Of a DNA stretch of 64,000 bases, positions 1 through 42,947 are shown in pieces. The DNA is from a virus. The notes under the pieces were generated by a model. That model worked only from the letters and a program-made list of their open reading frames with translations, was not told where the DNA came from and did not search any database. Each line of letters opens with the position of its first letter. Positions within the stretch are counted from its first letter, which is position 1. A program made the translations under genes and the position numbers. The stretch spans positions 8,699 through 72,698 of IMG/VR virus record IMGVR_UViG_3300049855_000239; one strand, 5' to 3'.

Positions 1-2
1 TG

Positions 3-164
3 GTAAAAGGAATGGCAACTAGATTAAATATTGAGATTAGAGACAAAAATGAGGCAGATCTTTTTAATGATGAGATTAAACTAAATCCAACAATCATGCA
101 GAAAGTAAATCCATTTATAGGCAAGCCAAAACTTGATCCTAAAATCACAAAAAAACTAAAATAG
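3..164 (+). CDS. 3' end of a hypothetical ORF running in from outside the window; stop lies just before the first attC-like site
   Basis: Open frame VKGMATRLNIEIRD...KITKKLK then TAG at 162-164, followed by ctgcagcTAAC. Confidence 0.5.
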   Translation, partial: VKGMATRLNIEIRDKNEADLFNDEIKLNPTIMQKVNPFIGKPKLDPKITKKLK

Positions 165-168
165 CTGC

Positions 169-298
169 AGCTAACACAGTATTTAAGAAACCTAGGGCTA
201 TATGAATTATTATTCATTATTCACATTTCATTAGTTTTTAGCGGTGGAGAATTTCGTCTCCGTCAATCCCTAAGTTTCTTAAATACATTGCGTTAGCG
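169..298. repeat. attC-like hairpin E1
   Basis: agcTAAC-aca-GTATTTAAGAAACCTAGGG ... CCCTAAGTTTCTTAAATAC-attgc-GTTAgcg; internal GCGGTGGAGA motif. Confidence 0.8.
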
Positions 299-934
299 GA
301 AACCGTGAGGACATTCAACACGATCGAAACTGTAAACCCAAACCCACGGATTTAGATCCCAACTATCATTTCCATTAATTTTTTGCCAAAGCGACCTATA
401 AGACCTTTGGGCATTTGAACACCATACCGATGGGTCTTTATTGGTATAGCATACAAAATTTCTTGGACTAAATCTGCAATTCTCGACACCTTCGCTTATC
501 GCATCTATTTCTGAAATGTCGTTTAGCCTTTCGACTCTAACATTTGTAACTTTTAGAAATAACCGACAAGCCTCTTTTGGCATAAATAGGCTTGGTTTCC
601 ATTTAGCAGACTCACAGCCAGATTTTATATATTCTTGTCTTAATTCTTCTCCTGAACTCCCTGTATCTGCCCTGTAATGCCAATAATTACGATGATACGT
701 ATGTGTTTCTCTGACCCAAATAATATCACCAATTTTGACTGGCGATTTCGATAAAGTTTCATCCCAATTTCCTAACGGAACATTATCTTTCAAAGTTCGT
801 CTTGTTTGGGTCTTGCTTCCATTTAATAATGCTCTGACCATCAGAGTTGAAAAAAGCATCGGTCTAAAAACGGCATCCGCTAACACTGTATTTGATAAAT
901 CAGGGGCGGTATTGGCTTTGGTTGCTGTATTCAT
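293..934 (-). CDS. ASCH/PUA-like phage protein (cassette gene)
   Basis: RPMLFSTLMVRALLNGSKTQTRR, WKPSLFMP, VRVERLNDIS, WDLNPWVWV motifs; likely ATG at 934 inside hairpin E2; stop TAA inside the core of E1. Confidence 0.7.
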   Translation of the reverse strand: MNTATKANTAPDLSNTVLADAVFRPMLFSTLMVRALLNGSKTQTRRTLKDNVPLGNWDETLSKSPVKIGDIIWVRETHTYHRNYWHYRADTGSSGEELRQEYIKSGCESAKWKPSLFMPKEACRLFLKVTNVRVERLNDISEIDAISEGVENCRFSPRNFVCYTNKDPSVWCSNAQRSYRSLWQKINGNDSWDLNPWVWVYSFDRVECPHGFR

Positions 935-1008
935 TTTAGTTTCTATTTTTACGGTGGAGAGTTCCGCCTCCGTCACTCCCTAGTTTTCTTGAACACCTGT
1001 CGTTATAT
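878..1008. repeat. attC-like hairpin E2 (chimeric arms)
   Basis: cgcTAAC 878-884 ... GTTAtat 1002-1008; left ~60 bp identical to E6; internal ACGGTGGAGA. Confidence 0.75.
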
Positions 1009-1037
1009 GATAGTTTAAAATAGCAGCACAAACATGT

Positions 1038-1487
1038 TTAATACTCATCAGGTGCTTTGTTTTTCCAACTACTTGAACTATTCTGCATACGCAAACCTCT
1101 TAAATATCTTGAAGCACATGCAAGTTCACACATCAAAATCCACGCTCTTTCGTTTGGAGAAGAAAAATTCTTTCGTCTTTTCATCTTGTTTTTTTCTTCC
1201 TCTGATAATGCTTCAAAAGCGACACATTCATCGTATCTACGTTCTAGTTCTTTCCAGCAGTCAATATATGGCATCCATTGCTTATGTTGAATCATTACCT
1301 TTTCAATTTGAGGTCTTAAATCAGGCAATTTTCTGAGCATCCTTACACATCGACCAACATCAGAAATATCATGCGGTACATCACATTCCCCAGTTGGTAT
1401 TCCTGTAATAGCAGCAAACATTGTTTTTGAAGAAATGCCAGTATCTCTACTTGCTAACCATTCCATCCATTCTTTTTTAACTTCCAT
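1038..1487 (-). CDS. hypothetical phage protein (cassette gene)
   Basis: 149-aa ORF with DTGISSKTM...PHDISDVGRC motif, bounded by cassette ends. Confidence 0.7.
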   Translation of the reverse strand: MEVKKEWMEWLASRDTGISSKTMFAAITGIPTGECDVPHDISDVGRCVRMLRKLPDLRPQIEKVMIQHKQWMPYIDCWKELERRYDECVAFEALSEEEKNKMKRRKNFSSPNERAWILMCELACASRYLRGLRMQNSSSSWKNKAPDEY

Positions 1488-1524
1488 ATTATTAATTTAT
1501 TGCGTTGTAAATAAAAAACCAATC

Positions 1525-1611
1525 ATATAACACTATGTTTCTGATATGGGCGATAAAGTACTGGTAGTTCGGAATTTCCGAATGCCCACATCAGAAACAT
1601 TTACGTTATGC
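1525..1611. repeat. attC-like hairpin E3 (short)
   Basis: ataTAAC-act-ATGTTTCTGATATGGGC ... GCCCACATCAGAAACAT-ttac-GTTAtgc. Confidence 0.8.
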
Positions 1612-1617
1612 ACAATG

Positions 1618-1884
1618 CTATAATGACGGCAATCCGAGCGAAGAACGTACTTTAGCTTCTGCCAGATTTTTGATAAAATCGCTATCTGAAAGAATCTCTT
1701 TTGCTTTTGCTGCAATCATTTCCTTGAAGTTTAATTCTTGCATTGCCTTATCTAGCCCTTCCCGTAATGCACCTTCTACACACCAATCTAATGCACTTTC
1801 AAAAGCATTTGCCTTATTGGACATAAAAGACTTTTGAAAGTATTCTGTCAATGCCCTTTGAATGTCAGGCATATGAGTTTGCAT
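1618..1884 (-). CDS. hypothetical protein (cassette region)
   Basis: 88-aa helical ORF between E3 and half-site E4. Confidence 0.6.
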   Translation of the reverse strand: MQTHMPDIQRALTEYFQKSFMSNKANAFESALDWCVEGALREGLDKAMQELNFKEMIAAKAKEILSDSDFIKNLAEAKVRSSLGLPSL

Positions 1885-1919
1885 TATATTAGCTTCATTT
1901 GCATTAGTTTACTTTTTGT

Positions 1920-1979
1920 ACGGTTGATACATTCGGCTTCGTTACTCCCGAAAAAGCGTGAATAAGTGTCTCGTTAGGC
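1920..1979. repeat. attC-like right half-site E4
   Basis: ACGGTTGATACATTCGGCTTCG ... tcGTTAggc; no matching left TAAC arm found. Confidence 0.6.
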
Positions 1980-1985
1980 GAAATA

Positions 1986-2171
1986 TTAAAAATCACCATC
2001 CTCTAACCCACGAATAACGAAACAAACGAAAGAATAGATTATTGACAAGATGCCACAAAAAAACAATACTTTCAAATGCCCTGTACTTGAAACATTAAAG
2101 CATATAATTAACCCTAAGCCGATAATGAATAATTTGTCAATGATTTTCATGTTGATAAAATTAAAATACAT
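1986..2171 (-). CDS. small two-TM membrane protein (cassette gene)
   Basis: Two hydrophobic segments; fills cassette 1973-2180. Confidence 0.55.
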   Translation of the reverse strand: MYFNFINMKIIDKLFIIGLGLIICFNVSSTGHLKVLFFCGILSIIYSFVCFVIRGLEDGDF

Positions 2172-2173
2172 TC

Positions 2174-2304
2174 GCCTAACACAGTACTTATAAAACTGTG
2201 GGCTTTTTTGGTTATTGTTACTTTACTGCGCTCCACTCGCTTTTTTGCGGTGGATAGTGGCGTGGTCTTAAATCCCACAGCTTTAAAAGTACGTGCCGTT
2301 ACCT
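2174..2304. repeat. attC-like hairpin E5
   Basis: gccTAAC-aca-GTACTTATAAAACTGTGGG ... CCCACAGCTTTAAAAGTAC-gtgcc-GTTAcct; near-identical to E11. Confidence 0.8.
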
Positions 2305-2305
2305 G

Positions 2306-2692
2306 CTATTTTGCAGACGAGTACCATTCAAATTCCTCATCCATTAATTGATAAGTTGTTTTCGCTTTACCACATTGCAAATCTTTTAAATAAGCAACGC
2401 ATCTTTGTTTAGGTGTCGGTTGTTGATAATTTTCATTTTTACCATCATTTACAGGATAAACCATATAGGTTGTTGCAATATTTTCAAACCAATCAAAAAG
2501 CTTTCCACCACCTAAATCAAATAAATGTCCGAATAAGCAATTTTTACCATCTTTTGTTTTTACTATATCTGTACACCAACTTTCCTCCGTTGTATTTTCC
2601 ATGTAAGTAATAATCACATCTAAAGAAAAAACAGCAGGTAACACTGTATTTGATAAATCAGGGGCGGTATTGGCTTTGGTTGCTGTATTCAT
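2306..2692 (-). CDS. hypothetical phage protein (cassette gene; first 18 aa encoded by hairpin E6)
   Basis: 128-aa ORF; N-terminus MNTATKANTAPDLSNTVL is identical to that of the 293..934 gene. Confidence 0.7.
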   Translation of the reverse strand: MNTATKANTAPDLSNTVLPAVFSLDVIITYMENTTEESWCTDIVKTKDGKNCLFGHLFDLGGGKLFDWFENIATTYMVYPVNDGKNENYQQPTPKQRCVAYLKDLQCGKAKTTYQLMDEEFEWYSSAK

Positions 2693-2766
2693 TTTAGTTA
2701 TTGTTTTTACGGTAGATAAATTCGGCTTCGAAAAGCCCCTGTTTTCTCAAATACTTAGCGTTAGCT
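2636..2766. repeat. attC-like hairpin E6
   Basis: aggTAAC-act-GTATTTGATAAATCAGGGGC ... GCCCCTGTTTTCTCAAATAC-ttagc-GTTAgct. Confidence 0.8.
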
Positions 2767-2767
2767 G

Positions 2768-3103
2768 CTATACTAACTGACGCCAAGTTTTACCACTATT
2801 GAATATTGGGCTTTTTTCGTCAACTAAATTAAGCTTACCAATTAGTTCATGTGCTTGTTGTTTTGATATTTTGCATTTGCCATAATTATCGGAATCATAA
2901 ACTTTTACAAGAGTATATTCATCATTCCACTGGCTTATACTCCAGAAATTATTATCCCACAGTTTTACACATTTATCAATATCGACTTTGCAAGATACTG
3001 TATTTGGAAATGTCAAAAGCACCTCTGTTAAAATAACAGTACAGCAGCTAACACTATGTTCTCGAACTTGTGGCGTTTTTTCAATCTTGATATTATTTTT
3101 CAT
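2768..3103 (-). CDS. hypothetical protein (cassette gene; probable start inside hairpin E7)
   Basis: ORF track 2768..3181 reads through E7; internal ATG at 3103 preceded by A-rich sequence. Confidence 0.55.
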   Translation of the reverse strand: MKNNIKIEKTPQVREHSVSCCTVILTEVLLTFPNTVSCKVDIDKCVKLWDNNFWSISQWNDEYTLVKVYDSDNYGKCKISKQQAHELIGKLNLVDEKSPIFNSGKTWRQLV

Positions 3104-3177
3104 GTCATTTACATTTTTACGGGTGATACTTTCGTGGACTTTACATGCCACAACTTCGTGAACATTTAGCGTTAGTT
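3046..3177. repeat. attC-like hairpin E7
   Basis: agcTAAC-act-ATGTTCTCGAACTTGTGGC ... GCCACAACTTCGTGAACAT-ttagc-GTTAgtt. Confidence 0.8.
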
Positions 3178-3588
3178 TCAATCTTGTAAAACGAGTTCTT
3201 CGCCAACAAGAGCAAAATATAAGTTCTGTAACTGGTGTACAAATTCAATCAATCTTAAACATGTACCTCGAAACCAAAATTCATTTCCAATAAAATATAT
3301 GTCATGATTTTCATCAAAATACCACATCTCGAAATCTTCTGAAATAAATCCAAACCGTTTCTTCCAGTTATTATCTAATGATATAGGGATAATTTCAACC
3401 AAATTACCATCCTTTATATGATATTCAACATGAAGGATGTTTTCTGGATGAGCAAATATATGAACTTCATCATCTCTAATTTCGACAACATTAAAATGAC
3501 AGTTAATATATTCTTCCTCTTCTAATTCTTTCTTAACTTCTTCGTTTATGAAGACAATATTCCCAAATCTTAACTCATTTACTTTCAT
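3178..3588 (-). CDS. YopX-like Bacteroidota phage protein
   Basis: NELRFGN...PISL...FGF...IEFVHQLQNLYFALVGEEL pattern. Confidence 0.65.
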   Translation of the reverse strand: MKVNELRFGNIVFINEEVKKELEEEEYINCHFNVVEIRDDEVHIFAHPENILHVEYHIKDGNLVEIIPISLDNNWKKRFGFISEDFEMWYFDENHDIYFIGNEFWFRGTCLRLIEFVHQLQNLYFALVGEELVLQD

Positions 3589-3616
3589 GGTTTTATGGTT
3601 ACGGTTGACAAAAAAA

Positions 3617-3673
3617 AGACTAAAACTACGGTGGATTTATTCGGCTTCGAAAAGCCCCTGTTTTCTCAAATAC
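3617..3673. repeat. truncated attC-like remnant E8
   Basis: ACGGTGGA followed by 3640-3673, identical to the E6 right arm 2721-2754; cut off where the 97-bp repeat starts. Confidence 0.65.
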
Positions 3674-3770
3674 TCTTTAAATACAGTGCAAATGTAGCAT
3701 TTAAATAATCTAAAAAAAATATTATTTTGATTTTTTATTTATCTTTTTAGTGCTTACATTTGTTCCACTA
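3674..3770. promoter_or_regulatory. divergent promoter block, copy 1 of a perfect 97-bp inverted repeat
   Basis: TACATTTG on - strand (3689-3696) and + strand (3755-3762); exact reverse complement of 9192-9288. Confidence 0.8.
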
Positions 3771-3952
3771 CATTTGTGGCATATTAAGACAACGATTATG
3801 ACAGTAAAATTTAAAACAGTCCCTACAACCTTATTGGTTATTTTTTTAATTGACCACATAAGCCAATCATTTACAAGTCACGTTACTAATTATCCTTATT
3901 GGGTTGTTTTGATTTTGTTTATGATATATTCAAAATTTGACTAAATAAGATT

Positions 3953-4318
3953 ATGAATTTACAACTATCATTAATTAATAGGTGGTTTATAAAAACCGAA
4001 ATAGGCGAGAAATTAGAGGACTATCGGGAACTAACGCCTTATTGGTATGCTAGATTATGTTTGTATGATGGCAAAAAACAACCTAAAAGTTTTTGGGAAT
4101 TTGCGCCAAGAACTAGCTTTAATTTTGATTCTAATAAAGTTACGTTTAAGAAATTCGAAGCAAACATTATGACATTAGGCTATCCTAAATCAACCGACAC
4201 AGATCGAATACTAAAATATAAACACGCTGGAATTGAAATAAGAACTGGTAATCCTAATTGGGGCGCAGAAGAAGGTAAATTATACTTTGTAATCAAGCAT
4301 GGAGAAAAGATACGGTAA
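3953..4318 (+). CDS. ASCH domain protein
   Basis: LQLSLINRWF...GEKLEDYRELTPYW...LGYPK...GNPNWGAEEGKLYFVI. Confidence 0.7.
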   Translation: MNLQLSLINRWFIKTEIGEKLEDYRELTPYWYARLCLYDGKKQPKSFWEFAPRTSFNFDSNKVTFKKFEANIMTLGYPKSTDTDRILKYKHAGIEIRTGNPNWGAEEGKLYFVIKHGEKIR

Positions 4319-6108: not shown

Positions 6109-6238
6109 TTATAACGTTGTATTTTCGCACTTAATGGCATTCTGGTTTACATCACTTCACTTGCATTCATTCAGGCTACTACAGTGGATAAATTCGACTC
6201 TGTTCATCCATTAAATGCGTAAATAGTCTTCGTTAGGT
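6109..6238. repeat. attC-like hairpin E10
   Basis: ttaTAAC...TATTTTCGCACTTAATGG ... CCATTAAATGCGTAAATA...GTTAggt; internal ACAGTGGATAAATTCG. Confidence 0.8.
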
Positions 6239-6622: not shown

Positions 6623-6751
6623 CTAACACAGTACTTATAAAACTGTGGGTTTTTTGGGTTGTTGTTACATTTTTGCGCTCCACTCACTTTTTGGCGGTGG
6701 ATAGTGGCGTGGTCATTACTCCCACAGCTTTATAAGTACGTGCCGTTAGCG
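6621..6751. repeat. attC-like hairpin E11
   Basis: accTAAC-aca-GTACTTATAAAACTGTGGG ... CCCACAGCTTTATAAGTAC-gtgcc-GTTAgcg. Confidence 0.8.
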
Positions 6752-8362: not shown

Positions 8363-8492
8363 CACTAACATGATATTTAGTCATTTAAGGTCATTCTGGT
8401 GTCGGTTCTGTACTCGCATTCGGTTAGTTTTCTACGGTGGATAAATTCGGCTCTGTCACTCCCTTAAAAGCCAAAATACATGTTCGTTATAC
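8363..8492. repeat. attC-like hairpin E12
   Basis: cacTAAC 8363-8369 ... GTTAtac 8486-8492; TATTTAG..TTTAAGG / CCTTAAAAG..AAATA arms; internal ACGGTGGATAAATTCGGCTC. Confidence 0.7.
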
Positions 8493-14524: not shown

Positions 14525-16726
14525 ATGGAGTATAGCGAATTTTTAGGGAATAAAAGAAAATCAGTTATAAAGTCTGGTTTTGAGGTAAAGGAATTTAAAT
14601 GCAAAACTCTAAGAGAAGATCAAAAATTTGTAATTAAAAAAGGACTCCAATCAGGGCGTTTTGCTTTTTTTCAGGATTGCGGATTGGGTAAAACAGTAGA
14701 ACAGCTAGAATGTGCATGGCAAGTGTTACAATACACAAATAAGCCTGTTTTAATACTCACACTTTTAGCTGTAGTAGATCAAACAATGGATATTGAAGCT
14801 CCAAAGTTTGGATTTGAAATTTATAAATTAAAACAAAATTCAATAGTAGAACCAAAAATATACATTACAAATTACGATCAATTAGAAAATATTGATTCCA
14901 GTTTGTTTGAATGTATAATTTTAGATGAAAGTTCAAAACTTAAAAACGTTGATGGTAAAACTAGGAATTTATTAGTTGAAAAGTTTCTTAAAACACCCTA
15001 TAAATTTTGCTTTACGGCAACCCCAAGCCCTAACGATCACATGGAACTTGGAAACCATTCTGAGTTCTTAGGACACATGTCATATGGTGAAATGTTGGCA
15101 ATGTTCTTTGTTCATGATGGTGGTGAAACTAGTAAATGGCGTTTAAGGAAGCATGCAGAAAATGATTTCTGGGATTATGTTTTGAGTTGGTCAATTGCCG
15201 AAACAACACCAAAAAGTTTAGGATTCGATATTGATGGATTTGATTTGCCAGAGATTAACTTTATTGAACACTTTATAGATGTTGAAGGCGAAAACCTTAA
15301 TTTATTTGGAGAGTCGGAAGTTTCGGCCACAGAATTACATGCTGATTTGAGATCAACAATAAATGAAAGGGTATTAAAATGCAAAGAGATAGTTTCGGAA
15401 ATACCAAATGTACAATGGCTTATTTGGGGATTAGGTAATGCAGAAACTGATTTAATTGCAAAAACTATTGATGGATGCGTAAACGTACAAGGTTCAAATA
15501 CTCCAGAAATTAAGGCCAAAAATCTGAATGCTTTTGCAACAGGAGAAATAAAAGATATGGTAACAAAGGCTAAAATAGCTGGTTTCGGTATGAATTACCA
15601 AAATTGTTACAATATGATTTTTTCATCTTACGATTTTGGATTTGAATTGTTTTATCAGGCAATCAGAAGGGCTTATCGTTTTGGGAATCCTTATTCTGTA
15701 AACGTACATTTAATTATCCCAAGAACTCAGATTAATGTAAGGAGTTCTATTTTATTAAAAATGAAAAAACACAAAGAAATGATGGAAAAGTTAGCACAAA
15801 AATGCTTTATCTACCAAAAGAAAGAAGCTGAATTTGTAAAGAATGAAGATGTAAAAACTAGTGATTACTGGTTGATGAATGGAGATTGCGTTGAAAAATC
15901 AAAATTGATTCCTGATAATGCTGCTGATGTTTGCGTTTTTTCACCTCCATTTTCAGAGTTATATGTTTATTCTGATAAAATAGAGGATATGGGTAATTCA
16001 AAGGATTATACAGAATTTGAAACTCATTTTAAATACCTAATTCCTGAGATTAAAAGAGTTCTTAAGTCAGGCCGTATTTGTGCTGTTCATTGCATGGACC
16101 TTCCAATTCAGAAAGGGAAAGAAGGCTATATCGGTCTTAGAGACTTTTCGGGTATGTTGGTTGATTGGTTCACAGAAAAAGGATTTATTTACCATGCAAA
16201 GGTTACTATTTGGAAGAATCCAGTAACGGAAATGCAGCGCACAAAAGCATTGGGATTACTCCATAAAACAATAAAAAAAGATTCCGTAATGTCTCGTGTA
16301 GGAATACCAGATTACGTTTTGTTTTTCAGAAATGAAGGGGAAAATGAGGTACCAATTAGGCACCAAGACATCGACCAATCAAGGCCGGATTATTTACCAG
16401 TTGATTTGTGGCAAAAATACGCAAGCCCTGTTTGGATGGACGTTAACTATTCTCGTACACTTCAATATACAACGGCTCGAGATTCAAACGATGAAAAGCA
16501 TATTTGCCCATTACAATTAGATACGATTGAAAGAATATTGCATCTTTATTCGAATGAAGGTGAAACTGTTTTTAGTCCTTTTGGCGGTATTGGGTCAGAA
16601 GGTTTTCAATCTTTAAAAATGAATCGTAAATCAATTTCTATTGAGTTAAAAGAATCGTATTTTAAAGTAAATGTACAAAACCATAAAAATGCAGCCCTAA
16701 AAGGAACTTTAGAATTAGTATTTTAA
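14525..16726 (+). CDS. SNF2-type helicase fused to an amino (N6A/N4C) DNA methyltransferase
   Basis: DCGLGKT, LDESS, TATP, QAIRRAYRFG helicase motifs; then GDC, FSPPF, HICPLQ, SPFGGIGS (beta-class motif order). Confidence 0.88.
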   Translation: MEYSEFLGNKRKSVIKSGFEVKEFKCKTLREDQKFVIKKGLQSGRFAFFQDCGLGKTVEQLECAWQVLQYTNKPVLILTLLAVVDQTMDIEAPKFGFEIYKLKQNSIVEPKIYITNYDQLENIDSSLFECIILDESSKLKNVDGKTRNLLVEKFLKTPYKFCFTATPSPNDHMELGNHSEFLGHMSYGEMLAMFFVHDGGETSKWRLRKHAENDFWDYVLSWSIAETTPKSLGFDIDGFDLPEINFIEHFIDVEGENLNLFGESEVSATELHADLRSTINERVLKCKEIVSEIPNVQWLIWGLGNAETDLIAKTIDGCVNVQGSNTPEIKAKNLNAFATGEIKDMVTKAKIAGFGMNYQNCYNMIFSSYDFGFELFYQAIRRAYRFGNPYSVNVHLIIPRTQINVRSSILLKMKKHKEMMEKLAQKCFIYQKKEAEFVKNEDVKTSDYWLMNGDCVEKSKLIPDNAADVCVFSPPFSELYVYSDKIEDMGNSKDYTEFETHFKYLIPEIKRVLKSGRICAVHCMDLPIQKGKEGYIGLRDFSGMLVDWFTEKGFIYHAKVTIWKNPVTEMQRTKALGLLHKTIKKDSVMSRVGIPDYVLFFRNEGENEVPIRHQDIDQSRPDYLPVDLWQKYASPVWMDVNYSRTLQYTTARDSNDEKHICPLQLDTIERILHLYSNEGETVFSPFGGIGSEGFQSLKMNRKSISIELKESYFKVNVQNHKNAALKGTLELVF

Positions 16727-17464: not shown

Positions 17465-18166
17465 ATGGAAAATAGAGATTTTAAAGGAGTTTGGATTCCT
17501 AAAGAAATATACCTAAATAAAGATCTTAGTTGGTCAGAAAAGATACTTTTAATCGAAATTGATTCTTTAGATAATGACGAAGAAAAAGGATGTTTTGCAT
17601 CCAATAAATACTTGTCTGAATTTATTGGAATAAGCGAGTCAAGTATGGCCAATATGATTTCTAAATTAAAGAGCCAAAATTACCTATTTCAAGTCTTTTT
17701 TGATGGAAGGAATAGAGGTTTGAGACTTCATAAAAATATGAAGTCAGGGTTCATAAAAGATGTTGAGACTTCACAAGAATATGAAGGCAGGGTTCATAAA
17801 AATATGAAAGCTGAGTTAACAAAAATAGTAAAGCAGACTACACAAAAAAATGAACATAGTAATATAATTAATAATACAACTAGTAAAACAAGTATTGATG
17901 ATAGGAAAAACGCCTTTGGCTACACACTTAAAGAATTTGAAAGTAAATATCCTGTGCAAATGTTAGAAGCATTTTTTAGGTATTGGGCTGAAAAGAATAA
18001 ATCAGGTACAAAGATGAAATGGGAACTTGAAAAAACATTTGAAGTAGGATTAAGATTAGCAACTTGGGCAAGTAGAGATAAAACATTCAATTCACAACAA
18101 GGCCAAATTTTTACACCAGCACCACCTAAAAAACAAATGACAAATGAGGAAAGACGAAGAGCTTAG
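17465..18166 (+). CDS. phage replication initiator (N-terminal HTH)
   Basis: FKGVWIPKEI...EKILLIEIDSL...CFASNKYLSEF; C-terminal FFRYW...RLATW; directly upstream of DnaB. Confidence 0.8.
   Translation: MENRDFKGVWIPKEIYLNKDLSWSEKILLIEIDSLDNDEEKGCFASNKYLSEFIGISESSMANMISKLKSQNYLFQVFFDGRNRGLRLHKNMKSGFIKDVETSQEYEGRVHKNMKAELTKIVKQTTQKNEHSNIINNTTSKTSIDDRKNAFGYTLKEFESKYPVQMLEAFFRYWAEKNKSGTKMKWELEKTFEVGLRLATWASRDKTFNSQQGQIFTPAPPKKQMTNEERRRA
17722..17855. repeat. putative replication origin iterons inside the initiator gene
   Basis: TTCATAAAAATATGAA-like units; ~43-bp imperfect tandem duplication starting 17722 and 17765; followed by an AT-rich tract. Confidence 0.6.
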
Positions 18167-35008: not shown

Positions 35009-35908
35009 TTATTTAGAATGTTTATAAACAATACCGCTTTCTTTTACAATAATAAAATCCCCAATAGGCGATTCAAATATTCCCAAGAAATCCTCAAAGC
35101 TGACATAATCGCCTACGTTTACATTCAATACTTCATCCCCAATAAAAGCCACTTCTCCTTTAGGAAGAAACTTCCTATGTGATTCAGGAATAAACACACC
35201 ACCTTCTGTTTTGTCTTTTTCGGGTTCAGGAGAAATAAGAATATAATCTTCTACTACCACAAATTCATCAGTATGCTTAATAGCAAACACATCCGATTCT
35301 TTCATGGCATAATAGACTTTGCCATTTATCGTCACCTCGGAATTTGAGTTAGGAAGAAAGTAAACATCACATCCACGATAGTTATTTGAATAAACAATCG
35401 TACCACAATTCAAATGCTTTTTGACTTCCGACTGTATAAACAGCCCACTACTTGTCTTAATTTCGTCCTCGCTTTGAAAAATAGGCTCTAGTAAGATAAA
35501 ATTCTTGTTCATCAGAATATCTTCGCCACGAGTAACGCATATTGCCCTCCAAGCAGGTAGCAGATAAGTGAACGACATTTTAATGTTTCCGTTCTTGTCT
35601 ACTTCACCCCAAAGCTTTTTCTTTTCAATCTCACGATCTTTGTTTAGTGCCGACCAGTAAAAGTGAACCGTATCGCCTACTTCAAATACAGTAGCACCAC
35701 CTTCTTTTTCGCACCTTTCAGTTAATCGTTGTGGCGTGGCAATAATTGTGGCATACGTTTTCTTGTACTTATTCGGGTTATAAAGAATATCCTTTTCATC
35801 CAATGAAATTGTCTTCTCAAAGAACTGCGAAGAACTATTTCCTACGATTAAACCTGTTTCATACAGGCAATCTAGTTCTATGATGTAATTATCTAATACT
35901 CCTTTCAT
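35009..35908 (-). CDS. multi-domain GroES/Cpn10-like co-chaperonin
   Basis: Repeated Cpn10-like units: FILLEP...KTSSGLFI and YILISPEPEKDKTEGGVFIP...GEVAFIG...VNVGDYV. Confidence 0.75.
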   Translation of the reverse strand: MKGVLDNYIIELDCLYETGLIVGNSSSQFFEKTISLDEKDILYNPNKYKKTYATIIATPQRLTERCEKEGGATVFEVGDTVHFYWSALNKDREIEKKKLWGEVDKNGNIKMSFTYLLPAWRAICVTRGEDILMNKNFILLEPIFQSEDEIKTSSGLFIQSEVKKHLNCGTIVYSNNYRGCDVYFLPNSNSEVTINGKVYYAMKESDVFAIKHTDEFVVVEDYILISPEPEKDKTEGGVFIPESHRKFLPKGEVAFIGDEVLNVNVGDYVSFEDFLGIFESPIGDFIIVKESGIVYKHSK

Positions 35909-36238
35909 ATTTATGAATTAATCCACTGTTTTAACTCGTCAATCATTTTGTTCGCATCTTCTTTGGAATATAATTGCGAAAAGGCCATCACACTCTTCTG
36001 TAAACAGAATGCCATCTTTTTCTTTTACAACAGACAATATTCTTGCATCGCCCCCAATTAGTACAATTCCCAAAGCCCCATATCCATTACAGGACTTTTC
36101 TTCTTTCCATTGAGTCAGTACCATTTAGTTGATGTTATGCCCAAAAGTAGATAAACATTTCGATTCCGCAATGAAATCGCAATAAAAAAGCAAATAAATT
36201 TTCTTATTTACCTTTGCATAAATCAAAATGATAAAGAC

Positions 36239-36793
36239 ATGACAAGTAATACTCCAGTTATCCCAATCACATCTTACGATGCAGTAAAAGACGAAGCTAA
36301 AATTGTTTACGAATCAATAGTGGCTTTAAGAAGTGTATCATACCTTGGAACGGCAGCAAATGCAGAAGTTAAGTATATGAAAAGTGGTATTACAGATACC
36401 ATCGCTGCTCTTGAATCTCCTGCTACACTAAAATATTTAGCAGGCGTAAATACCGCTACTTCAACTGGGCTTACCGTTCTAGGCGCAAACGTAGCAGGAA
36501 CAAACGTAGGTTCGGCATCGTCAGGAACAACTAACATTATCAATTATATCACTTACGGTTCGGCTGCTACTGGCGTAAAATATACGCTTCCTGCAATCGC
36601 AAAAGGGTTGTGTTATACAATATTTAACACACATGCTTCAAGTGCTTTGAGTATCTATCCTGTTACTGGTGATTATATTGATGCTTTGGCAGTTGACACA
36701 GCTGTATCAATCCCTGTAGGTGGAAGCAAGACTTTCTATACAAAATCAATATCTGCAACTGCAACAGCAAAAAAAGGTTGGTTCTCGTTGTAG
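36239..36793 (+). CDS. virion structural/decoration protein
   Basis: T/A/S-rich beta protein with YTLPAIAKG motif; own promoter (TACCTTTG 36209) and terminator. Confidence 0.55.
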   Translation: MTSNTPVIPITSYDAVKDEAKIVYESIVALRSVSYLGTAANAEVKYMKSGITDTIAALESPATLKYLAGVNTATSTGLTVLGANVAGTNVGSASSGTTNIINYITYGSAATGVKYTLPAIAKGLCYTIFNTHASSALSIYPVTGDYIDALAVDTAVSIPVGGSKTFYTKSISATATAKKGWFSL

Positions 36794-36820
36794 TACGGAA
36801 AATATTATGTTTGGTATTAT

Positions 36821-36862
36821 AACAGAAATCCTCTTGCGGTGTCGTAAGGGGATTTTTCTGTT
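36821..36862 (+). terminator. intrinsic terminator
   Basis: AACAGAAATCCTCTTGCG-gtgt-CGTAAGGGGATTTTTCTGTT. Confidence 0.7.
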
Positions 36863-36972
36863 ATACAGAATATTATTTGGTAGTTATGGTATTTGATATA
36901 TCAATTATTTTGCTATAAATTTGCTTGTAAACGGAATAATATTTCGCAAAAACATAATAAATCGAAACAAAA

Positions 36973-38112
36973 ATGGATGAAAACGAAATCGACCCATTAG
37001 AAGCTTCTTGGGAAAGTGCCGAACAAGCACCAGTGGCCGAAGAAGCAAAAACAGAAGAAACTCCTGTTGCTCCTTTAGAGGAAGAAAAAGTTGAAGAAAA
37101 CTCGTTACCTGACATTGTTCCGTTAGAAGACGAAGAACCTATTGTAGAAACACCGCAAGACGTTGATACGTTTTTGCAAGAAAAATATTCAGACTATGGC
37201 ATCAAATCAGGAAAAGATTTAGATGCCTTTTTTCAAAAGCAGTCGGCTTACGAAAGTCAAATAGCTGAACTAAATGCCAAATTGGAGGACGCTTCAAAAA
37301 AGGCAAACCCATTTGAGAACGATGCACAACGCAAGTTATTTGAGTTTGCAAAGTCTTTCGATGGAACAAATGCTAAGGTATTAGCGGAGTTTGAGCATTT
37401 GCAGTCATTAGACGTTGAAAAAATGTCGGCTAAGGACGCTCTGAAAGAAGCCTACGTACAAGCAAATAAAACATTTGGTCGGGCAAAAGCCGAAGAGATG
37501 TTCGATTTGAACTACGAAGACACTTACGATACGAGCGCACTTGACCCTGATGACGATGCAAAGGAGATTCGCAAACGCAGTTTAAAGCTAGAGTTCGATT
37601 CTGTTGATGCCAAAAGAAAGCTGGCAGATACGATAAAGACTTTTAAGCCAGAAGCGACAAGCGAGAAACAAGCCCCAATTAATACAGTGCTTGAAGCGGA
37701 GGTACAGAGAACACTTAAAAATGCCGATGAGGTGTTGTCCAACTTTAAGACCGTAGACATAGTGCTTGATAAAACAGGTGCTAGAAAGTTTACAGTTGGT
37801 CTTTCAGAAAATCAACAAAACATCGTGAATCAAGAGGTTCGCAACTACTTGTCGAACAGGGCAAATTATGACGAAAAAGGAAATTTGCTTAATGGGGCTA
37901 CTCCACAATCGGTTGCACAATTTATCACAAAAGCAGCGTTTAACGACCTGATGATAAGGAAGGCATACGAGAGAGGATTGCACGAGAAAGAAATGGAATA
38001 CGTGCAAAAGAACGTACCAAAAGCAGGGAAACCTATTTCGGCGGGAAGTAACGCACATCAAGTGGCTACTTCCGAACAAGAGGCATTTGAGATGTCCCTT
38101 GCATCAAAATAA
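36973..38112 (+). CDS. capsid scaffolding protein
   Basis: Acidic, coiled-coil, directly upstream of the major capsid gene. Confidence 0.7.
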   Translation: MDENEIDPLEASWESAEQAPVAEEAKTEETPVAPLEEEKVEENSLPDIVPLEDEEPIVETPQDVDTFLQEKYSDYGIKSGKDLDAFFQKQSAYESQIAELNAKLEDASKKANPFENDAQRKLFEFAKSFDGTNAKVLAEFEHLQSLDVEKMSAKDALKEAYVQANKTFGRAKAEEMFDLNYEDTYDTSALDPDDDAKEIRKRSLKLEFDSVDAKRKLADTIKTFKPEATSEKQAPINTVLEAEVQRTLKNADEVLSNFKTVDIVLDKTGARKFTVGLSENQQNIVNQEVRNYLSNRANYDEKGNLLNGATPQSVAQFITKAAFNDLMIRKAYERGLHEKEMEYVQKNVPKAGKPISAGSNAHQVATSEQEAFEMSLASK

Positions 38113-38141
38113 ATTAACCACAAAAATCAAAGAAAAAGAAA

Positions 38142-39518
38142 ATGGCATATACACAAGCCTCCGCAATTACGAGACAATCTACCGACATGGTGTCGTTGAT
38201 GGATTATATCGACAAACCTCAATATTGGGGTAAATTTATTCAGACCTTCAAAGACCAATACGATTTGGGCTTGATGAAGCAAATGGAAATGATGGACGAA
38301 ATCGTTGGGGGTGAACAATACTTCTGGGAAGAAAACGATAAGTTTATTACTGTTCCTGTTGCTGCTGGTGCGCCAGTAAACAATACTACCTATGCTACTA
38401 TTACTTATGACGCAGCTAGTCATACAGATAGTGGAAAGAAATCATACGGCCGTGTTGGGGAAACCATTGAACTACCAAACTATTTGTCAGGTTTAATTAC
38501 TGCTAAAAACACAAGTGTTGATGGCGCACATACAATTGATGTAAAACCAATTGGCACTGACAGTTCTGGCGCAGCTATTACTGTTGCTGCATTGGTGGCT
38601 AATATCACCGCAGGTATGCCATTGCCAATTATCACTAACGGTTGGACAGAAGGTGGAGCTGGTTTGGGTTCTACTATAATGTCAAGTGTATCTAAATTCT
38701 CGAATAGAATCCAAAATATCACAGAGACTTATGAGGTTACATTCAACTCTCAAACTAATGAGACTTGGGTTGATTTCCCTTTTAATGCACCTGATGGTAC
38801 TGCTAAGAATCGTTATTGGGTAAAACAAGCACACGAAGCGGAAATCAGAATGATGAGGGCAATTATGTTGGCTTCGTTCAATGGTAAAGGTGGCTCTACT
38901 ACTGATGCCTCTGGTAATACAGTTTACTTCACGGAAGGTCTTTATACTACTTCTGAAAAATATGCTACTCTATTGCCTTATGGTTCTACCATCTCTAAAG
39001 CATACTACGATCAATTAGAGAAAATCACTCGTAATAACTTCTCTGGGAACGAGTATACTCAATTTGTAGGTTTGACAGCAAATCAGAAACTACAAGACTT
39101 GAAGGTTGATTACAAAAAGAATCGTCCTGATGGCGTTAGTCCTGAATTGATTAATACACGTGTAAACAGAATGGAGATTGGCGACAATACCTACGACATT
39201 GTTCCGTTGAAAGTTCTTTCTGACCCTTATTCATTGGGTGTTATTGGTACTAAATACCAATCTACTATCCTTACTTTGCCTTCTGGTGCTTCTACTGTAA
39301 TGGTGGATAATAAACCAGTTGAATCTAAGTATTTTATGATGAGGTACAAGCCACGTGTACGTCCATACAAAGGCAAGTCTTACTTTGCAGTAGAGACTCT
39401 AGGTTATAACGGTTCAGTTGCTACTAATGCAAATGACGTTAAGACTTACGCTTGGAAAGCATCTATCGGAGCGCAAACACACTCTGCTAGAAACTTCGTC
39501 TTGTCTTACGCTTCTTAA
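38142..39518 (+). CDS. major capsid protein
   Basis: 458 aa, YFWEE, NRIQNITETYEV, TEGL; strong codon bias; follows scaffold and precedes a terminator. Confidence 0.8.
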   Translation: MAYTQASAITRQSTDMVSLMDYIDKPQYWGKFIQTFKDQYDLGLMKQMEMMDEIVGGEQYFWEENDKFITVPVAAGAPVNNTTYATITYDAASHTDSGKKSYGRVGETIELPNYLSGLITAKNTSVDGAHTIDVKPIGTDSSGAAITVAALVANITAGMPLPIITNGWTEGGAGLGSTIMSSVSKFSNRIQNITETYEVTFNSQTNETWVDFPFNAPDGTAKNRYWVKQAHEAEIRMMRAIMLASFNGKGGSTTDASGNTVYFTEGLYTTSEKYATLLPYGSTISKAYYDQLEKITRNNFSGNEYTQFVGLTANQKLQDLKVDYKKNRPDGVSPELINTRVNRMEIGDNTYDIVPLKVLSDPYSLGVIGTKYQSTILTLPSGASTVMVDNKPVESKYFMMRYKPRVRPYKGKSYFAVETLGYNGSVATNANDVKTYAWKASIGAQTHSARNFVLSYAS

Positions 39519-39524
39519 TTTGAT

Positions 39525-39558
39525 AAGGGAGGTGAAATATCCTCCCTTTCTTTTTTTT
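39525..39558 (+). terminator. intrinsic terminator after MCP
   Basis: AAGGGAGG-tgaaatat-CCTCCCTT followed by a T-run. Confidence 0.85.
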
Positions 39559-39589
39559 GTTATAATACCAAAACATAACCACAATAAGA

Positions 39590-40582
39590 ATGTCAGCAAA
39601 ATCATTATCACCAAAATTGCAAGAGGTTCTTGATAAGAGAATCGCAGATAGAGTTAGATTCCACACCGATTCGGCAACAGGACTAACTACTCCATTTGTA
39701 TTCAAACTAGAGGGTGCAGATGCTATTGATAAAACGGTATCGCCACCTAAATTGATGCGTAAGAACGCATATTTACCACCCAAGACAGACATCTACGACC
39801 CATACGACAAAAAACAACCTGTAAAGATTGTCAGGAACGTAACGGATGTAGATATTCGTTGGGATGACGATAAACAACGTGAAGTAAGCGTTGAAACAGT
39901 GCAATCAGTAGAGTTTATTCAAAGTCACTGCTATGTGCAAGTGAACGAGATAAACAAGCTTGCCTACTTGATGTTTGGCGATGGCAATATGTCAAAACCA
40001 AAATTCCTTCAACGTCAAGGTGCAAAACCAATGATTAAATGGGAAGAATCTAGTTCTACATTACATTCAGGTCGTGACAGAAACGAGGTAGGCGAAATCA
40101 TGTTACTTTCTAAAGCATTGGAAGTAGCTAAAAGAGCCGATTTTGCAAGACAGAAACTTGTATTATCAACTATTTGTAAGGAAGAAAAATTTGCGTCATT
40201 CGACCCTAATGGGAAAGATTCAACTGCCATCAATAACGACTTCTTTATCTTTGCCAAGAACTATCCAAAGTCATTCCTACATACAAATGTAGAAGACAAT
40301 GTAAAAGTAGAAGTATTGGTAACAGAATCGGAATTGAAGGGTATTATCAAGAATGACAAAGGAACTGCTACATGGAAGATTGAAAGTGGTGATGGATTTG
40401 TAAAATTAATGGCTTACAACGCTATTACTGACACAGACCCAGATAAAGCACTTGTGAAATTCTTGCTTGACCCAAAGAACGAAAGGGCGTTGAAAAACCT
40501 AGAGTTCAAAAATAAACCGAAGCACCACCCATACATGCCTGCCGATGAAGTAGAGCCTGTTTTAGAGGAGGTTACTGCTTAA
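39590..40582 (+). CDS. hypothetical protein following MCP
   Basis: 330-aa ORF; position in head module. Confidence 0.6.
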   Translation: MSAKSLSPKLQEVLDKRIADRVRFHTDSATGLTTPFVFKLEGADAIDKTVSPPKLMRKNAYLPPKTDIYDPYDKKQPVKIVRNVTDVDIRWDDDKQREVSVETVQSVEFIQSHCYVQVNEINKLAYLMFGDGNMSKPKFLQRQGAKPMIKWEESSSTLHSGRDRNEVGEIMLLSKALEVAKRADFARQKLVLSTICKEEKFASFDPNGKDSTAINNDFFIFAKNYPKSFLHTNVEDNVKVEVLVTESELKGIIKNDKGTATWKIESGDGFVKLMAYNAITDTDPDKALVKFLLDPKNERALKNLEFKNKPKHHPYMPADEVEPVLEEVTA

Positions 40583-40629
40583 AAAGCGATTCAAAATCGT
40601 TTGTTACATTTGTGAAAAGAAAAGGATAG

Positions 40630-41838
40630 ATGGCATTAACTATATCGGCTTCCCCACTAGGCTATTTAGGTGGGTCGGTAACTATAACAGCATCAAGCAT
40701 TCCAACGTCTCCTAGTAGATGGGGATTGTTCCTTTTTTACAAAGCCGTAACAAGTGCGACACCATATTATAGCAGTCCAGTAGCAGGAAATTATCTAAAC
40801 CCTGCTACTGATACTTATTGGGATGTAACACTCCCAATGAATGCCACATATACATTTTATTCATTTGCCATATTAGCATACAACAATACCTATCCTTATG
40901 GATTGGGTGATTGGGTATTTAATCCCGTTGATGGGTGTATTTATATATCTAACGCAGGGTCTAATAATGGACACGCTTTAGATAATCAAACTTGGTGGAG
41001 GAAGATGGATTCTGACGACTACCAAGATGTCCCATTAAAAGGGGATAATTATAGTTCCATATCTTTCCCAGTAACAACGCTAGAAAGAGCAAGCCTTGTA
41101 CAGTCTGTTACCAACAATACAGCATTTCTTGGGTTGAACCTAAAGATGCGAATGTCATGTGATTCTAGTGTACAGACAATTGCATTGAATGACCAAACGG
41201 GCAATTTTGTTTTTGACACTAATCCAAATGGCTATGGTGGAGTAAACGCATATCGTGGCGACTATGCCTATGCTTCATTCCTGACCAATACAAGAGCCGA
41301 TGGATCGGTTTATACTTATACGCCAAGAACCTACTCGTATCGTTCGGCATTGAAGTACAATATTGATGTACCTAGAGATGGGTTGTATAGACTAGATTTA
41401 TTCATGGCACAATTATATGTGTCAGGAACTAGTTATAATACTAACGATTTAGTATTTGAAGAAACAAGCAATACATTCTATAAGTCACTGATAGACTATA
41501 ATTTAGATGCCGTTTCGGTTAGCACATCATGGATTGCTATTAGTACGCTAAGTGAGTTTCAATCGGTAGATTACTACCAATTGTGTCAATTCTATTTTAT
41601 ACAAGACAATAACGGAAGGAAGTTGTTGTATGACTTGGGAGCTGGTATAAAAGATTCTTGTCCTTGCGGATGTACTTCTAAGTGTGGCGATGATTTGTAC
41701 AAGAAATATATGTTTGTAATGCAGTGTATTGAAAATGCTTGCTTTGCGAAACAATTAGGGAAATATGAGTTGGCCCAGTGTTTCCTAGAAAAGATACCTA
41801 AAAATTGTGCGCCTTACGTTTCGATATACAAATGCTAA
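40630..41838 (+). CDS. virion structural protein
   Basis: Two CBM5/12-like aromatic repeats (YNNTYPYGLGDWV, YVSGTSYNTNDLV); Cys-rich C-terminus. Confidence 0.55.
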   Translation: MALTISASPLGYLGGSVTITASSIPTSPSRWGLFLFYKAVTSATPYYSSPVAGNYLNPATDTYWDVTLPMNATYTFYSFAILAYNNTYPYGLGDWVFNPVDGCIYISNAGSNNGHALDNQTWWRKMDSDDYQDVPLKGDNYSSISFPVTTLERASLVQSVTNNTAFLGLNLKMRMSCDSSVQTIALNDQTGNFVFDTNPNGYGGVNAYRGDYAYASFLTNTRADGSVYTYTPRTYSYRSALKYNIDVPRDGLYRLDLFMAQLYVSGTSYNTNDLVFEETSNTFYKSLIDYNLDAVSVSTSWIAISTLSEFQSVDYYQLCQFYFIQDNNGRKLLYDLGAGIKDSCPCGCTSKCGDDLYKKYMFVMQCIENACFAKQLGKYELAQCFLEKIPKNCAPYVSIYKC

Positions 41839-42046
41839 CGAACGCTCAATTACATACTAAAAAAGTAGAATCTACTCAGATTGGGGAGCAATTGCTTTAT
41901 CAAGTGAATGGAGGACAAGATATATGTTGTATATTATCGCAATGGGGAAAAGATTGGAGTACTTACAATAAGTATTCTACACCACCAAACGAGACAACAT
42001 CCGATAATAGGTTATTTGCAATGGAATTTGACGTAGAATTTGAATA

Positions 42047-42943: not shown

Positions 42944-42947
42944 TGAT

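Follow-up and report, generated by a model that had tools for sequence, protein, structure and literature searches.

An attC-like hairpin of phage cassette arrays that may supply start codon and leader to start-less genes

Integron cassettes are assumed to be expressed from a promoter of the platform and mostly to bring their own ribosome start, and recombination sites that aid translation have been treated as special cases of attI1. Here, we analyze a family of attC-like hairpins of ca. 125 nt that separate small accessory genes in a virus record (IMGVR_UViG_3300049855_000239), and the loop of which would provide a translation start module from which cassettes lacking a start are expressed; we assign this reading a probability of roughly 0.65. 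The record, of 72,698 bp, is rated linear and 69% complete by the tool used, and the host of the phage is probably a member of the Bacteroidota. The window, i.e. the whole stretch of 64,000 nucleotides that was analyzed, spans bases 8,699–72,698 of the record; positions are those of the window unless preceded by "genome" or by the name of another locus (L). Coordinates of the features are collected in Table 1.

Clusters of attC sites devoid of an integrase (CALINs) have been described in virulent phages, including the methylase cassettes of Polaribacter phage P12002L, and IntI1 recombined five of the six sites tested (Qi et al. 2023, PMC9892861, from the portions of the text available); the terms "start codon" and "Flavobacter" are absent from its main text. 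In P12002L, hairpins of 49–58 nt of the form TAAC..GTTA stand beside methylase genes and may be among the sites tested. With regard to translation, attI1 contains the frames ORF-11, ORF-17 and ORF-18 (ORF, open reading frame), short ORFs of attC relieve the barrier posed by the stem-loop and aid translation downstream, and aacA4 cassettes use an upstream start, as described in the available sections of PMC8876359. In T4-type phages, shuffling mediated by PeSL elements and the formation of mini-circles have been documented (PMC2839356, available in part). Within the limited coverage of our literature search, no systematic in-frame fusion of a leader from an attC-like loop and no closer integron-like system of phages were found. 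A previous reading of this DNA made from the letters alone (the sequence-only reading) had held that classical attC sites are not known to provide start codons; this stands for systematic in-frame leader fusion, and has to be qualified in view of the precedents of ORF-11, the attC short ORFs and aacA4 in the sections of PMC8876359 available. For the element studied here, the most fitting description is that of a hairpin resembling attC in which the loop has gained a module for starting translation; its nearest precedents are ORF-11 of attI1 and the short ORFs of attC.

Read in the direction of the genes, i.e. on the minus strand, each element runs from TAAC through a 5' arm of ca. 25 nt, a loop of ca. 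65–70 nt and a 3' arm to GTTA. A scan for paired arms found 14 sites per strand of the 72.7-kb record, as against 0–5 in five shuffles; together with a chimeric element at 881–1007 this amounts to 15 elements, of which six precede the window, in the first 8.7 kb of the record. The length is 123–126 nt in thirteen of them, and one is a short form of 81 nt. Aligned, the 13 long copies of the record share a stem of 25 pairs in which 82.8% of the cells are paired, whereas shuffled alignments gave 68.1% (none of 500 reached the observed value) and slid controls 32–44%, and compensatory changes were seen at 17 of the 25 pairs. TAAC and GTTA are invariant in all 13 copies, and the three outer bases of the cores often depart from the R/Y pattern of integrons (R'' RYYYAAC, R' GTTRRRY), as in CGCTAAC and GTTACCT. 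Within the loop there are a small hairpin of G+C pairs, the conserved motif ATCCACCG(T/C)AAAAA, a stretch rich in A and, ahead of the 3' arm, ACCAR. A 2-nt bulge is repeatedly seen in the folds on the 5' arm, seven pairs up from the base; it is a candidate for extra-helical bases of the kind that set strand polarity in attC. These statistics were drawn from the record's own copies because, when 43 elements of various phages were aligned with MAFFT, the 5' arm came out too poorly, RNAalifold yielding only 10 pairs from that alignment. Searches of the elements in Rfam returned no matching family, with glmS as the only sub-threshold match (E 0.2). Pairs of the G-T type outnumber A-C ones in the stem by 20 to 8, 11 of the 20 coming from a single pair; a structure acting on the sense strand or in RNA, read from the better duplex energies of the sense strand, was dropped, the difference being mostly due to that one conserved G-T pair.

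Two reduced forms of the element were also observed. Short hairpins of 74–92 nt (the one at 1528–1608, L003:274-358, and others in L121, L175 and further loci) have the same cores and arms and no loop module. Half elements at 1900–1985 and 3600–3680 (minus strand) have retained the small hairpin and the CCACCGTA block along with the 5' arm, and lack the 3' arm and core; the ATG of the next gene (1884 and 3588, respectively) follows ca. 35–40 nt past CCGTA, and the loop block seems to serve there as an ordinary 5' leader.

The elements share with integron attC sites and with CALINs an imperfect hairpin between inverse cores that agree in AAC and GTT, if often not in their outer bases, a structure that is kept while the sequence varies, an arrangement in arrays of one-gene cassettes, and methylases among the cargo. 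As in integrons, the core past a hairpin is part of the cassette that comes next, and it can pair with the core behind the gene of that cassette. They differ from attC in the length of the hairpin (123–126 nt), in a putative start within the loop that reads in frame into the next gene, and in that both cores are break points, so that a gene does not keep its 3' hairpin; and the locus differs from an integron platform in having no IntI, related arrays ending instead at a small Xer-like recombinase gene of the same orientation.

The case for a start module begins with two identical copies of it. The identity, placed at 881–940 and 2639–2698 by the sequence-only reading, was borne out as an exact match of 61 nt, one base longer (881–941 and 2639–2699), and a direct-repeat search sees the same pair as 139 nt at 80% (874–1012 and 2632–2770). 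At one end the 61-nt identity stops exactly at the TAAC/GTTA core, and at the other in the loop, 7 nt upstream of an ATG. On the minus strand, both copies run without a stop from an A-rich tract through this ATG (934 and 2692), the leader MNTATKANTAPDLSNTVL and the GTTA core into an ORF. Translations and coordinates thus confirm that one leader of 18 amino acids (aa) is read in frame into two genes, 293..934 and 2306..2692, whose protein bodies are unrelated, since BLASTP aligns residues 1–32 only. A third ORF (2768..3103), for which element E7 had been proposed to offer the start, indeed has ATG 3103 as its sole ATG; it encodes MKNNIKIEKTPQVREHSVS in frame with the body, crossing the core as GTT AGC (V-S). 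The stop codon TAA of the 293..934 gene (295..293) lies within the TAAC core of the next element.

The product of 293..934, previously called ASCH-like, has no match in Pfam; support for the name comes from ASCH matches in 18 of the 35 relatives aligned, which are weak (E 0.0015 at best), and from an AlphaFold model whose top matches in the PDB are ASCH, DUF984 and YqfB folds, at E of about 1e-3. It is referred to hereafter as the ASCH-fold protein. Likewise, the description of both leader copies as hairpin sites holds for E6 (z -6.6) and not for the chimera E2, the RNA fold of which (-24.1 kcal/mol, z = -0.15) is matched by 84 of 200 shuffles. In the RNA folds of 2639–2763 and 3049–3174 the region of the ATG is unpaired or nearly so.

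Homologues were searched for all three proteins. Each family keeps its body from the boundary of core and cassette onward; leaders differ, and homologues devoid of a leader have their first residue at most a few positions from this boundary. In the 2306 family, eight or more different leaders, all much alike in length, are found on homologues whose bodies are 72–92% identical, e.g. MSKAKTTSTAPDLLNTVL, MTELKINDQSPHCSKHVL, MESTKQTSNEAENGNKSKPLL and MNNEQNVEGLNISPAIEKPML, all joined at ..(V/L/M)L-PAVFSLD (..L-PAVFSLDVII), and leaderless relatives begin MKINTFSLD, MKINTFSLDVII or MEKLNDII. Met31 of the window protein aligns mostly with Leu, conservation beginning ca. ten residues earlier. In the ASCH family, the motif P[MI]LFST is present in 118 of the 120 best hits, 86 of which have a leader of at least 10 aa before it, and 82 of these leaders are distinct. 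Ile or Val replaces Met26 in 21 of the 86, and none of the 120 best hits starts at MLFST. Between the window protein and a relative 88% identical to it, leaders are 39% identical. Leaderless homologues of the 2768 family begin MKDSISIKDVLLTFP, which places GTG 3022 and TTG 3016 within the conserved body.

Some families of leaders are shared by proteins that are otherwise unrelated: MSKAKTTSTAPDL(S/L)NTVL is found on both P0003 (ASCH) and P0121 (2306 family), and NVEGL.(V/I)SPAI(A/E)KP(L/M)L on both P0018 and P0127. The DNA past the core is adjusted to the phase in which it is entered. In one phase it reads GTG TTA GCG GAT GCC GTT TTT (VL-ADAVF, as in VL-ADAVFRP) and in the other GTT AGT GGA AGT CGT TTT GTT (VS-GSRFV, as in VS-GSRFVP); the distance from ATG to core is 50 nt in the former and 51 nt in the latter, and a 1-nt difference past the core compensates for it, leaving 24 codons before a conserved Pro in both. 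At the other end of the protein, GF[R/C/H] forms the C-terminus in 66 of the 86 leader-bearing ASCH relatives versus 5 of 32 short forms, and the GFR of the ASCH-fold protein is encoded by the 3' inverted end of the cassette. With the stop codon in the next core, this indicates that the site shapes both ends of the protein.

Leaders are variable and mostly polar, and probably disordered: the AlphaFold model of the ASCH-fold protein has a mean confidence (pLDDT) of 87, with residues 1–16 below 50, and its first strand, at residues 23–27, begins before Met26. Four leaders of related arrays (L153:3233-3359, L170:302-427, L176:2927-3052 and L101:1096-1222) resemble by eye the signal peptides of lipoproteins: a hydrophobic segment spans the core, and ..FCGC.. 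or ..LTSC comes after it (e.g. ..AFAYVLLVAVIFCGC..).

Identical leaders on two unrelated proteins, together with the few that resemble lipoprotein signal peptides, might be taken to mean that the leader is a functional tag for sorting, packaging or secretion. Internal proteins of T4 do carry a capsid-targeting sequence. We find this hardly probable: 82 of 86 are distinct, identity falls to 39% next to a body that is 88% identical, leaders are mostly polar and modelled as disordered, and the identical pair is explained by the recent duplication of 61 nt.

The use of loop ATGs was then assessed in DNA. An exact search of viral contigs with 27 nt of the module gave no match, and degenerate patterns for the junction of the ASCH cassette retrieved one viral, two metagenome and one bacterial locus, the last of which, in Shinella, is probably due to chance. 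With so few junction-pattern loci, statistics at the DNA level were taken from protein-anchored loci. A downstream ORF of at least 45 codons, open at the core, was traced stop-free back to a loop ATG, and the other frames served as controls. The first set comprised the record and 11 loci, with 44 long elements, and is biased, having been found partly via leader-bearing proteins. In it, an in-frame loop ATG preceded 20 of 27 ORFs open at the core, the control frames giving 6 of 105. Among the 20, one is likely spurious: from loop ATG 217 of E1 an 84-codon frame (2–217, minus strand) runs antisense to an AntA-like gene, probably showing that not every read-through is a gene.

The second set comprised 80 loci found via a recombinase gene (see below), with leaders not consulted and exact duplicates removed, and holds 144 long and 62 short-form elements. 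An ORF was open at the core in 93 of the 144 long elements, and an in-frame loop ATG was present in 66 of these 93 versus 24 of 339 control frames (Fisher p 1.5e-35). Short-form hairpins showed no such enrichment (3/20 versus 17/166 control frames). All three phases are represented among the 66, by 41, 21 and 4 cases. In 47 of them there is no in-frame ATG within 15 codons past the core, and in 16 there is none at all. An A at position -3 precedes 74% of the fused loop ATGs versus 38% of other loop ATGs, matching the first of the two determinants of initiation, A-3 and low secondary structure, that are reported for Flavobacterium johnsoniae, which lacks Shine-Dalgarno use (PMC6847099, in the part available). 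The ATG lies mostly 50–51 nt from the core in this genome and in the relatives found first, and 42–69 nt in the larger set.

In the record itself, 14 elements have a gene downstream, and 5 of them provide this gene with an in-frame leader: E2, E6, E7, the element at genome 2646–2771, which yields MEKNSNTQETPQQLEHNVS followed past the core by EWFVFDY.., and that at genome 6437–6560, which yields MCEAQITSTPLHNSKLVL followed by GAVLSLFDGMSCG.., a C5 DNA methylase. In the remaining nine cases the gene has an ATG of its own, 25–60 nt past the core, and the loops ahead of them are free of ATG or contain a short ORF that stops early. Taken together, the exchange of leaders and bodies, the excess of in-frame loop ATGs in the second set and the enrichment of A-3 support the loop ATG as the translation start of start-less cassettes, as far as sequence comparison can tell, and with it the proposal of the sequence-only reading that the site is a portable start module.

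Two other accounts of the open frames have to be weighed here. Read-through could result from chance and from the bias of gene callers, translation beginning past the core at ATG 859, ATG 2602 and GTG 3022. Met26 is indeed kept in 65 of the 86 leader-bearing ASCH relatives, and in this A-rich DNA 41 of the 105 control frames stay open for at least 15 codons. We regard this account as very improbable, given that all three families are conserved from upstream of those codons, that Met31 is Leu in most relatives and Met26 is missing in 21 leader-bearing ones, and that 16 of the 66 fused ORFs lack any later in-frame ATG, besides the large enrichment over control frames.

The site might also give the start codon only, just before the TTA of the core (GTG in E2 and E6, ATG or TTG in some relatives), leaving 17 upstream codons untranslated. 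E2 and E6 both read GTG TTA, the relative P0008 is called from an ATG at that very position (MLSDAVFRP...), and the core of the chimeric E2 is not locked in a stem. This we hold to be improbable: it leaves unexplained why at least 17 upstream codons are open behind an ATG in 66 of 93 cases, versus 7% of control frames; it fails for the GTT-Ann phase (41 of the 66, E7 included) and for L003, where the codon is CTG; and in intact hairpins the core is base-paired.

The reading of the loop as a start module invites comparison with attI1, to the extent that it is described in the available sections of PMC8876359. As with ORF-11, ORF-17 and ORF-18, a recombination site with an initiation region of its own would aid start-less cassettes, and the frame spans the crossover. 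Those ORFs stop, however, often at the TAG of a cassette core, and act by translational coupling, whereas here the frame continues and adds a leader; and the module is found in attC-like sites all along the array, not in attI alone. An arrangement like that of ORF-11, with a stop at or near the core, occurs in a minority of loops, e.g. L003:2204-2333, where the loop ORF ends at the core TAG. In aacA4 and fused cassettes, too, a start-less ORF uses a start outside the cassette and N-termini vary (PMC8876359, PMC4670013, both in part); those cases are sporadic and often arise through loss of attC, whereas here the start resides in an intact, recurrent site, in 66 of 144 long elements.

Exchange at the cores is suggested by the ends of the cassettes and by the break points between related loci. 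All genes flanked by two elements have inverted ends of the form GTTAnnnn...nnnnTAAC, over 8–16 bp in four cassettes of the window, and these ends pair with each other and not with the adjoining hairpin. The ASCH-fold gene has GTTAGCGGAtgCCGT...ACGGttTCCGCTAAC, the 2768 gene GTTAGCTGCTGTACT...AGTATAGCAGCTAAC and the 2306 gene GTTACCTGCTGTTTT...AAAATAGCAGGTAAC, and two further cassettes have GTTAGGCG...CGCCTAAC and GTTATATG...CATATAAC; end pairs of window cassettes also include GTTAGCGG..CCGCTAAC and GTTAGCTGCTG..CAGCTAAC. By analogy with integrons, these matched ends are read as the footprint of integron-type exchange at a core. The 2306 cassette is shared with two other phage contigs at ca. 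90% DNA identity from TGTTACCTGCTG to CAGCAGGTAAC, and the flanking hairpins are unrelated on both sides.

Break points were compared over a total of 185 long elements, taken from the record together with 90 loci. In 17 pairs the last 54 nt are shared at 90% or more and the DNA past the core is unrelated, versus 3 pairs in which both are the same; in 22 pairs the first 50 nt are shared and the DNA before the core is unrelated, again versus 3 pairs with both the same. Breaks within the loop like that between E2 and E6 were found in only 3 pairs. Contigs of four other metagenome runs contain lone hairpins (e.g. 3047–3174, 2639–2763 and 170–296) or cassettes (310–889) at ca. 90% identity, and their loose ends begin at cores. 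These break points indicate that hairpin and gene are separate modules joined at TAAC and GTTA.

A candidate for the enzyme was found in one related contig, directly past the last cassette and in the same orientation, in the form of a 267-aa Xer-like tyrosine recombinase (L094:1156-1959). Among NCBIfam models, XerA / "integron integrase" matches it best, with 179.8 bits where the cut-off is 220, and TIGR02249 matches in two stretches with 138 bits against a cut-off of 265; with scores below the cut-offs, the protein is Xer-like and not a canonical IntI. Among 99 relatives of the recombinase in the viral collection, the best 80 loci were kept (L097-L176). Hairpins were present in 61 of these 80 loci, at 0.36 per kb versus 0.064 per kb in 79 ASCH-anchored loci, and most of the hairpin-free loci have almost no upstream flank; L090 and L091 were used for the hairpin scan only. 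A covariance model built from 13 elements of this record gave 63 full-length matches at E <= 0.01 in the 80 loci, all upstream of the recombinase gene and on its strand; neither Polaribacter phage P12002L nor the Shinella locus gave a match. In the 22 loci viewed, the last cassette ends in TAAC and is followed by a conserved stretch of ca. 55 nt (TAcTATATgTAAAAAccATCTGTAAACACTAATAAACTTAAcACC...) and then by the ATG of the recombinase; this stretch contains repeated TAAC(A/T)AC-like words and may be a primary, attI-like site, and it was not found in this record. The related arrays thus resemble the platform of an integron, except that the recombinase closes the far end of the array, the link being one of position.

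The hairpins could instead be regulatory blocks of RNA or DNA, with a real start module, that are shuffled by homologous or short-homology recombination at conserved blocks (the core and its flanks, ATCCACCG), much as has been proposed for PeSL elements. Those, too, are repeated intergenic stem-loop blocks that flank small accessory genes, in the hyperplastic regions of lytic phages, and permit modular shuffling, and this and the mini-circles are documented for them. The identity of E2 and E6 ends in the loop beside a conserved block, as in 3 pairs overall; the surroundings of the core are conserved as A[CT][AT]GTGTTA, offering 8–10 nt of homology; an AAA_24 (Sak4-type) protein and a resolvase of the RuvC-like kind are among the products of the phage; and a tyrosine recombinase is missing both from this record (no PF00589 match; 69% complete) and from two related ones for which completeness is rated at 100%. 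We nevertheless judge this alternative unlikely. Breaks at the cores (17 and 22 pairs) far exceed those in the loop (3 pairs), the cassette-specific inverted ends are what site-specific exchange at a core would leave behind, and the arrays are fixed in orientation and position with respect to the recombinase gene and the conserved site that begins with TAAC. PeSL elements, as described in the available part of PMC2839356, consist of a sigma-70 early promoter and a terminator, recombine by homology, and have no coding of an N-terminus, no inverse cores and no cassette-specific inverted ends. Scans of the elements here found no enrichment of either signal, with 34 sigma-70-type promoters versus 38.1 expected and 6 terminators versus 5.0, a weak result in that Bacteroidota promoters are not covered.

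On the reading that we prefer, genes and hairpins would be exchanged at both cores in the fashion of integron attC, with the Xer-like recombinase of related arrays as the candidate catalyst. The loop of the long form supplies an unpaired A-rich tract and an ATG; many cassettes lack a start codon and are open in frame from the core; and ribosomes would initiate at the loop ATG and cross the 3' arm and the core to give a protein with a leader of 17–25 residues. A cassette placed behind another long hairpin in the right phase would be expressed at once, with a new leader. The sequences themselves demonstrate how the elements are built, that their stems covary, that breaks fall at the cores and that the frame is kept open, while initiation at the loop ATG, site specificity of the exchange and the part of the recombinase are deduced from them. 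More widely, these elements might play the part of attC in an integron-like system of Bacteroidota phages that has yet to be described, with cassette arrays bearing anti-defence genes (Tad2-like, methylases), a primary site and an Xer-like recombinase, in which a site encoding a start and 17–25 residues in three phases lets captured start-less fragments be expressed, sometimes with a signal peptide; for this wider proposal we see the odds as even.

Several points weigh against the preferred reading. The 2306 gene, as seen in three contigs, does not retain its 3' hairpin on moving, unlike the genes of integron cassettes. No tyrosine recombinase is present in the three records named above, and the Xer-like protein of related arrays, which lies below every curated NCBIfam cut-off, could be a mere lysogeny integrase beside a region of accessory genes. 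Copy A of the module belongs to a hairpin that does not fold, and its recombination site may be dead; the core in both copies of the 18-aa leader itself offers a GTG start; and the advantage of sense-strand folding does not fix which strand is active. No RNA run was listed as containing 150–3700. Elements and proteins are related, so that p-values overstate their independence, though leaders are diverse nonetheless. Finally, the N-termini of proteins come from gene callers, which favour long ORFs, a concern that the control frames in DNA answer only partly.

Table 1. Positions of the start modules, the genes read from them and the hairpin elements (window coordinates unless a locus is named)
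Feature	Position	Strand	Remarks
Start module, copy A	881..941	-	GTTA core 884..881, 3' arm, 18 leader codons 934..881
Start module, copy A, initiation parts	ATG 934..932; A-rich leader of 7 nt 941..935	-	
Start module, copy B	2639..2699	-	Parts as in copy A; ATG 2692..2690, core 2642..2639
ASCH-fold protein, 213 aa including leader	293..934	-	Cassette body begins TTAGCGG (883..)
ASCH-fold gene, other ATG	859..857 (Met26)	-	
Protein of 128 aa including leader, function not assigned	2306..2692	-	Other ATG 2602..2600 (Met31), within conserved body
Protein of 111 aa including leader, function not assigned	2768..3103	-	No second ATG
2768..3103, only other candidate starts	GTG 3022..3020, TTG 3016..3014	-	Both within conserved body
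E1, hairpin 3' of ASCH cassette, last in array	172..295	-	Faces converging AntA-like gene
E2, chimera	881..1007	-	3' half identical to E6, 5' arm unrelated; missed by arm-pairing scan
E3, short form of 81 nt without start module	1528..1608	-	Own ATG of downstream gene 1487
E5	2177..2301	-	Loop without ATG; small downstream gene starts at or just past core (2171 or 2150)
E6, intact hairpin of 125 nt, TAAC..GTTA	2639..2763	-	RNA fold -41.8 kcal/mol, z -6.6; ATG unpaired in loop
E7, intact hairpin of 126 nt	3049..3174	-	Fold -34.3, z -4.6; loop ATG 3103..3101
E10	6112..6235	-	Downstream gene with own start 6062
E11	6624..6748	-	90% identical to E5; loop ORF stops at once
E12	8366..8489	-	Downstream helix-turn-helix (HTH) gene with own ATG 8334
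Cargo ORFs	L001:3655-4098, L001:5774-6571, L001:5427-5750	-	In record bases before window

The gene downstream of E11 starts at the core GTG 6622 or at ATG 6604. Nine small cassette proteins have no match in Pfam. Against the phage collection, blastn of 36001–44000 gave no match, and region 1–4000 matched only 107 nt of one Flavobacterium phage (two records). Cargo in the part of the record before the window includes a Tad2-like (Thoeris anti-defence) protein and a C5 cytosine DNA methylase, the Pfam match of the latter being split over two consecutive ORFs (profile positions 3–113 and 240–323), so that the gene may be interrupted or frameshifted. Elsewhere in the window, 14525–16726 (plus strand) encodes a protein of 733 aa in which an SNF2-type helicase is joined to an N6/N4 DNA methylase, and 35009–35908 (minus strand) an ORF of 299 aa with a Cpn10 (GroES-like) domain at its end. 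At 17720–17824 there are three tandem units of 39 nt, each with a short palindrome (TTCATAAAAATATGAA), in or beside an HTH_36 gene and just ahead of a DnaB-like helicase gene; these units could be origin iterons.

What emerges is a recombination site seemingly built to start translation, the start being present in almost every second long site across a large number of phage contigs. If this is true, the expression of cassettes would be freed of its dependence on position, a captured ORF without a start would become expressible, and the reading phase of a gene would be coupled to the site ahead of it. For annotation, it implies that genes in such arrays are easily mis-started, that the N-terminal 20 residues are uninformative as to family, and that the last codons, stop included, can be part of the site. 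As these arrays carry anti-defence genes, they are also a place in which to seek new ones.

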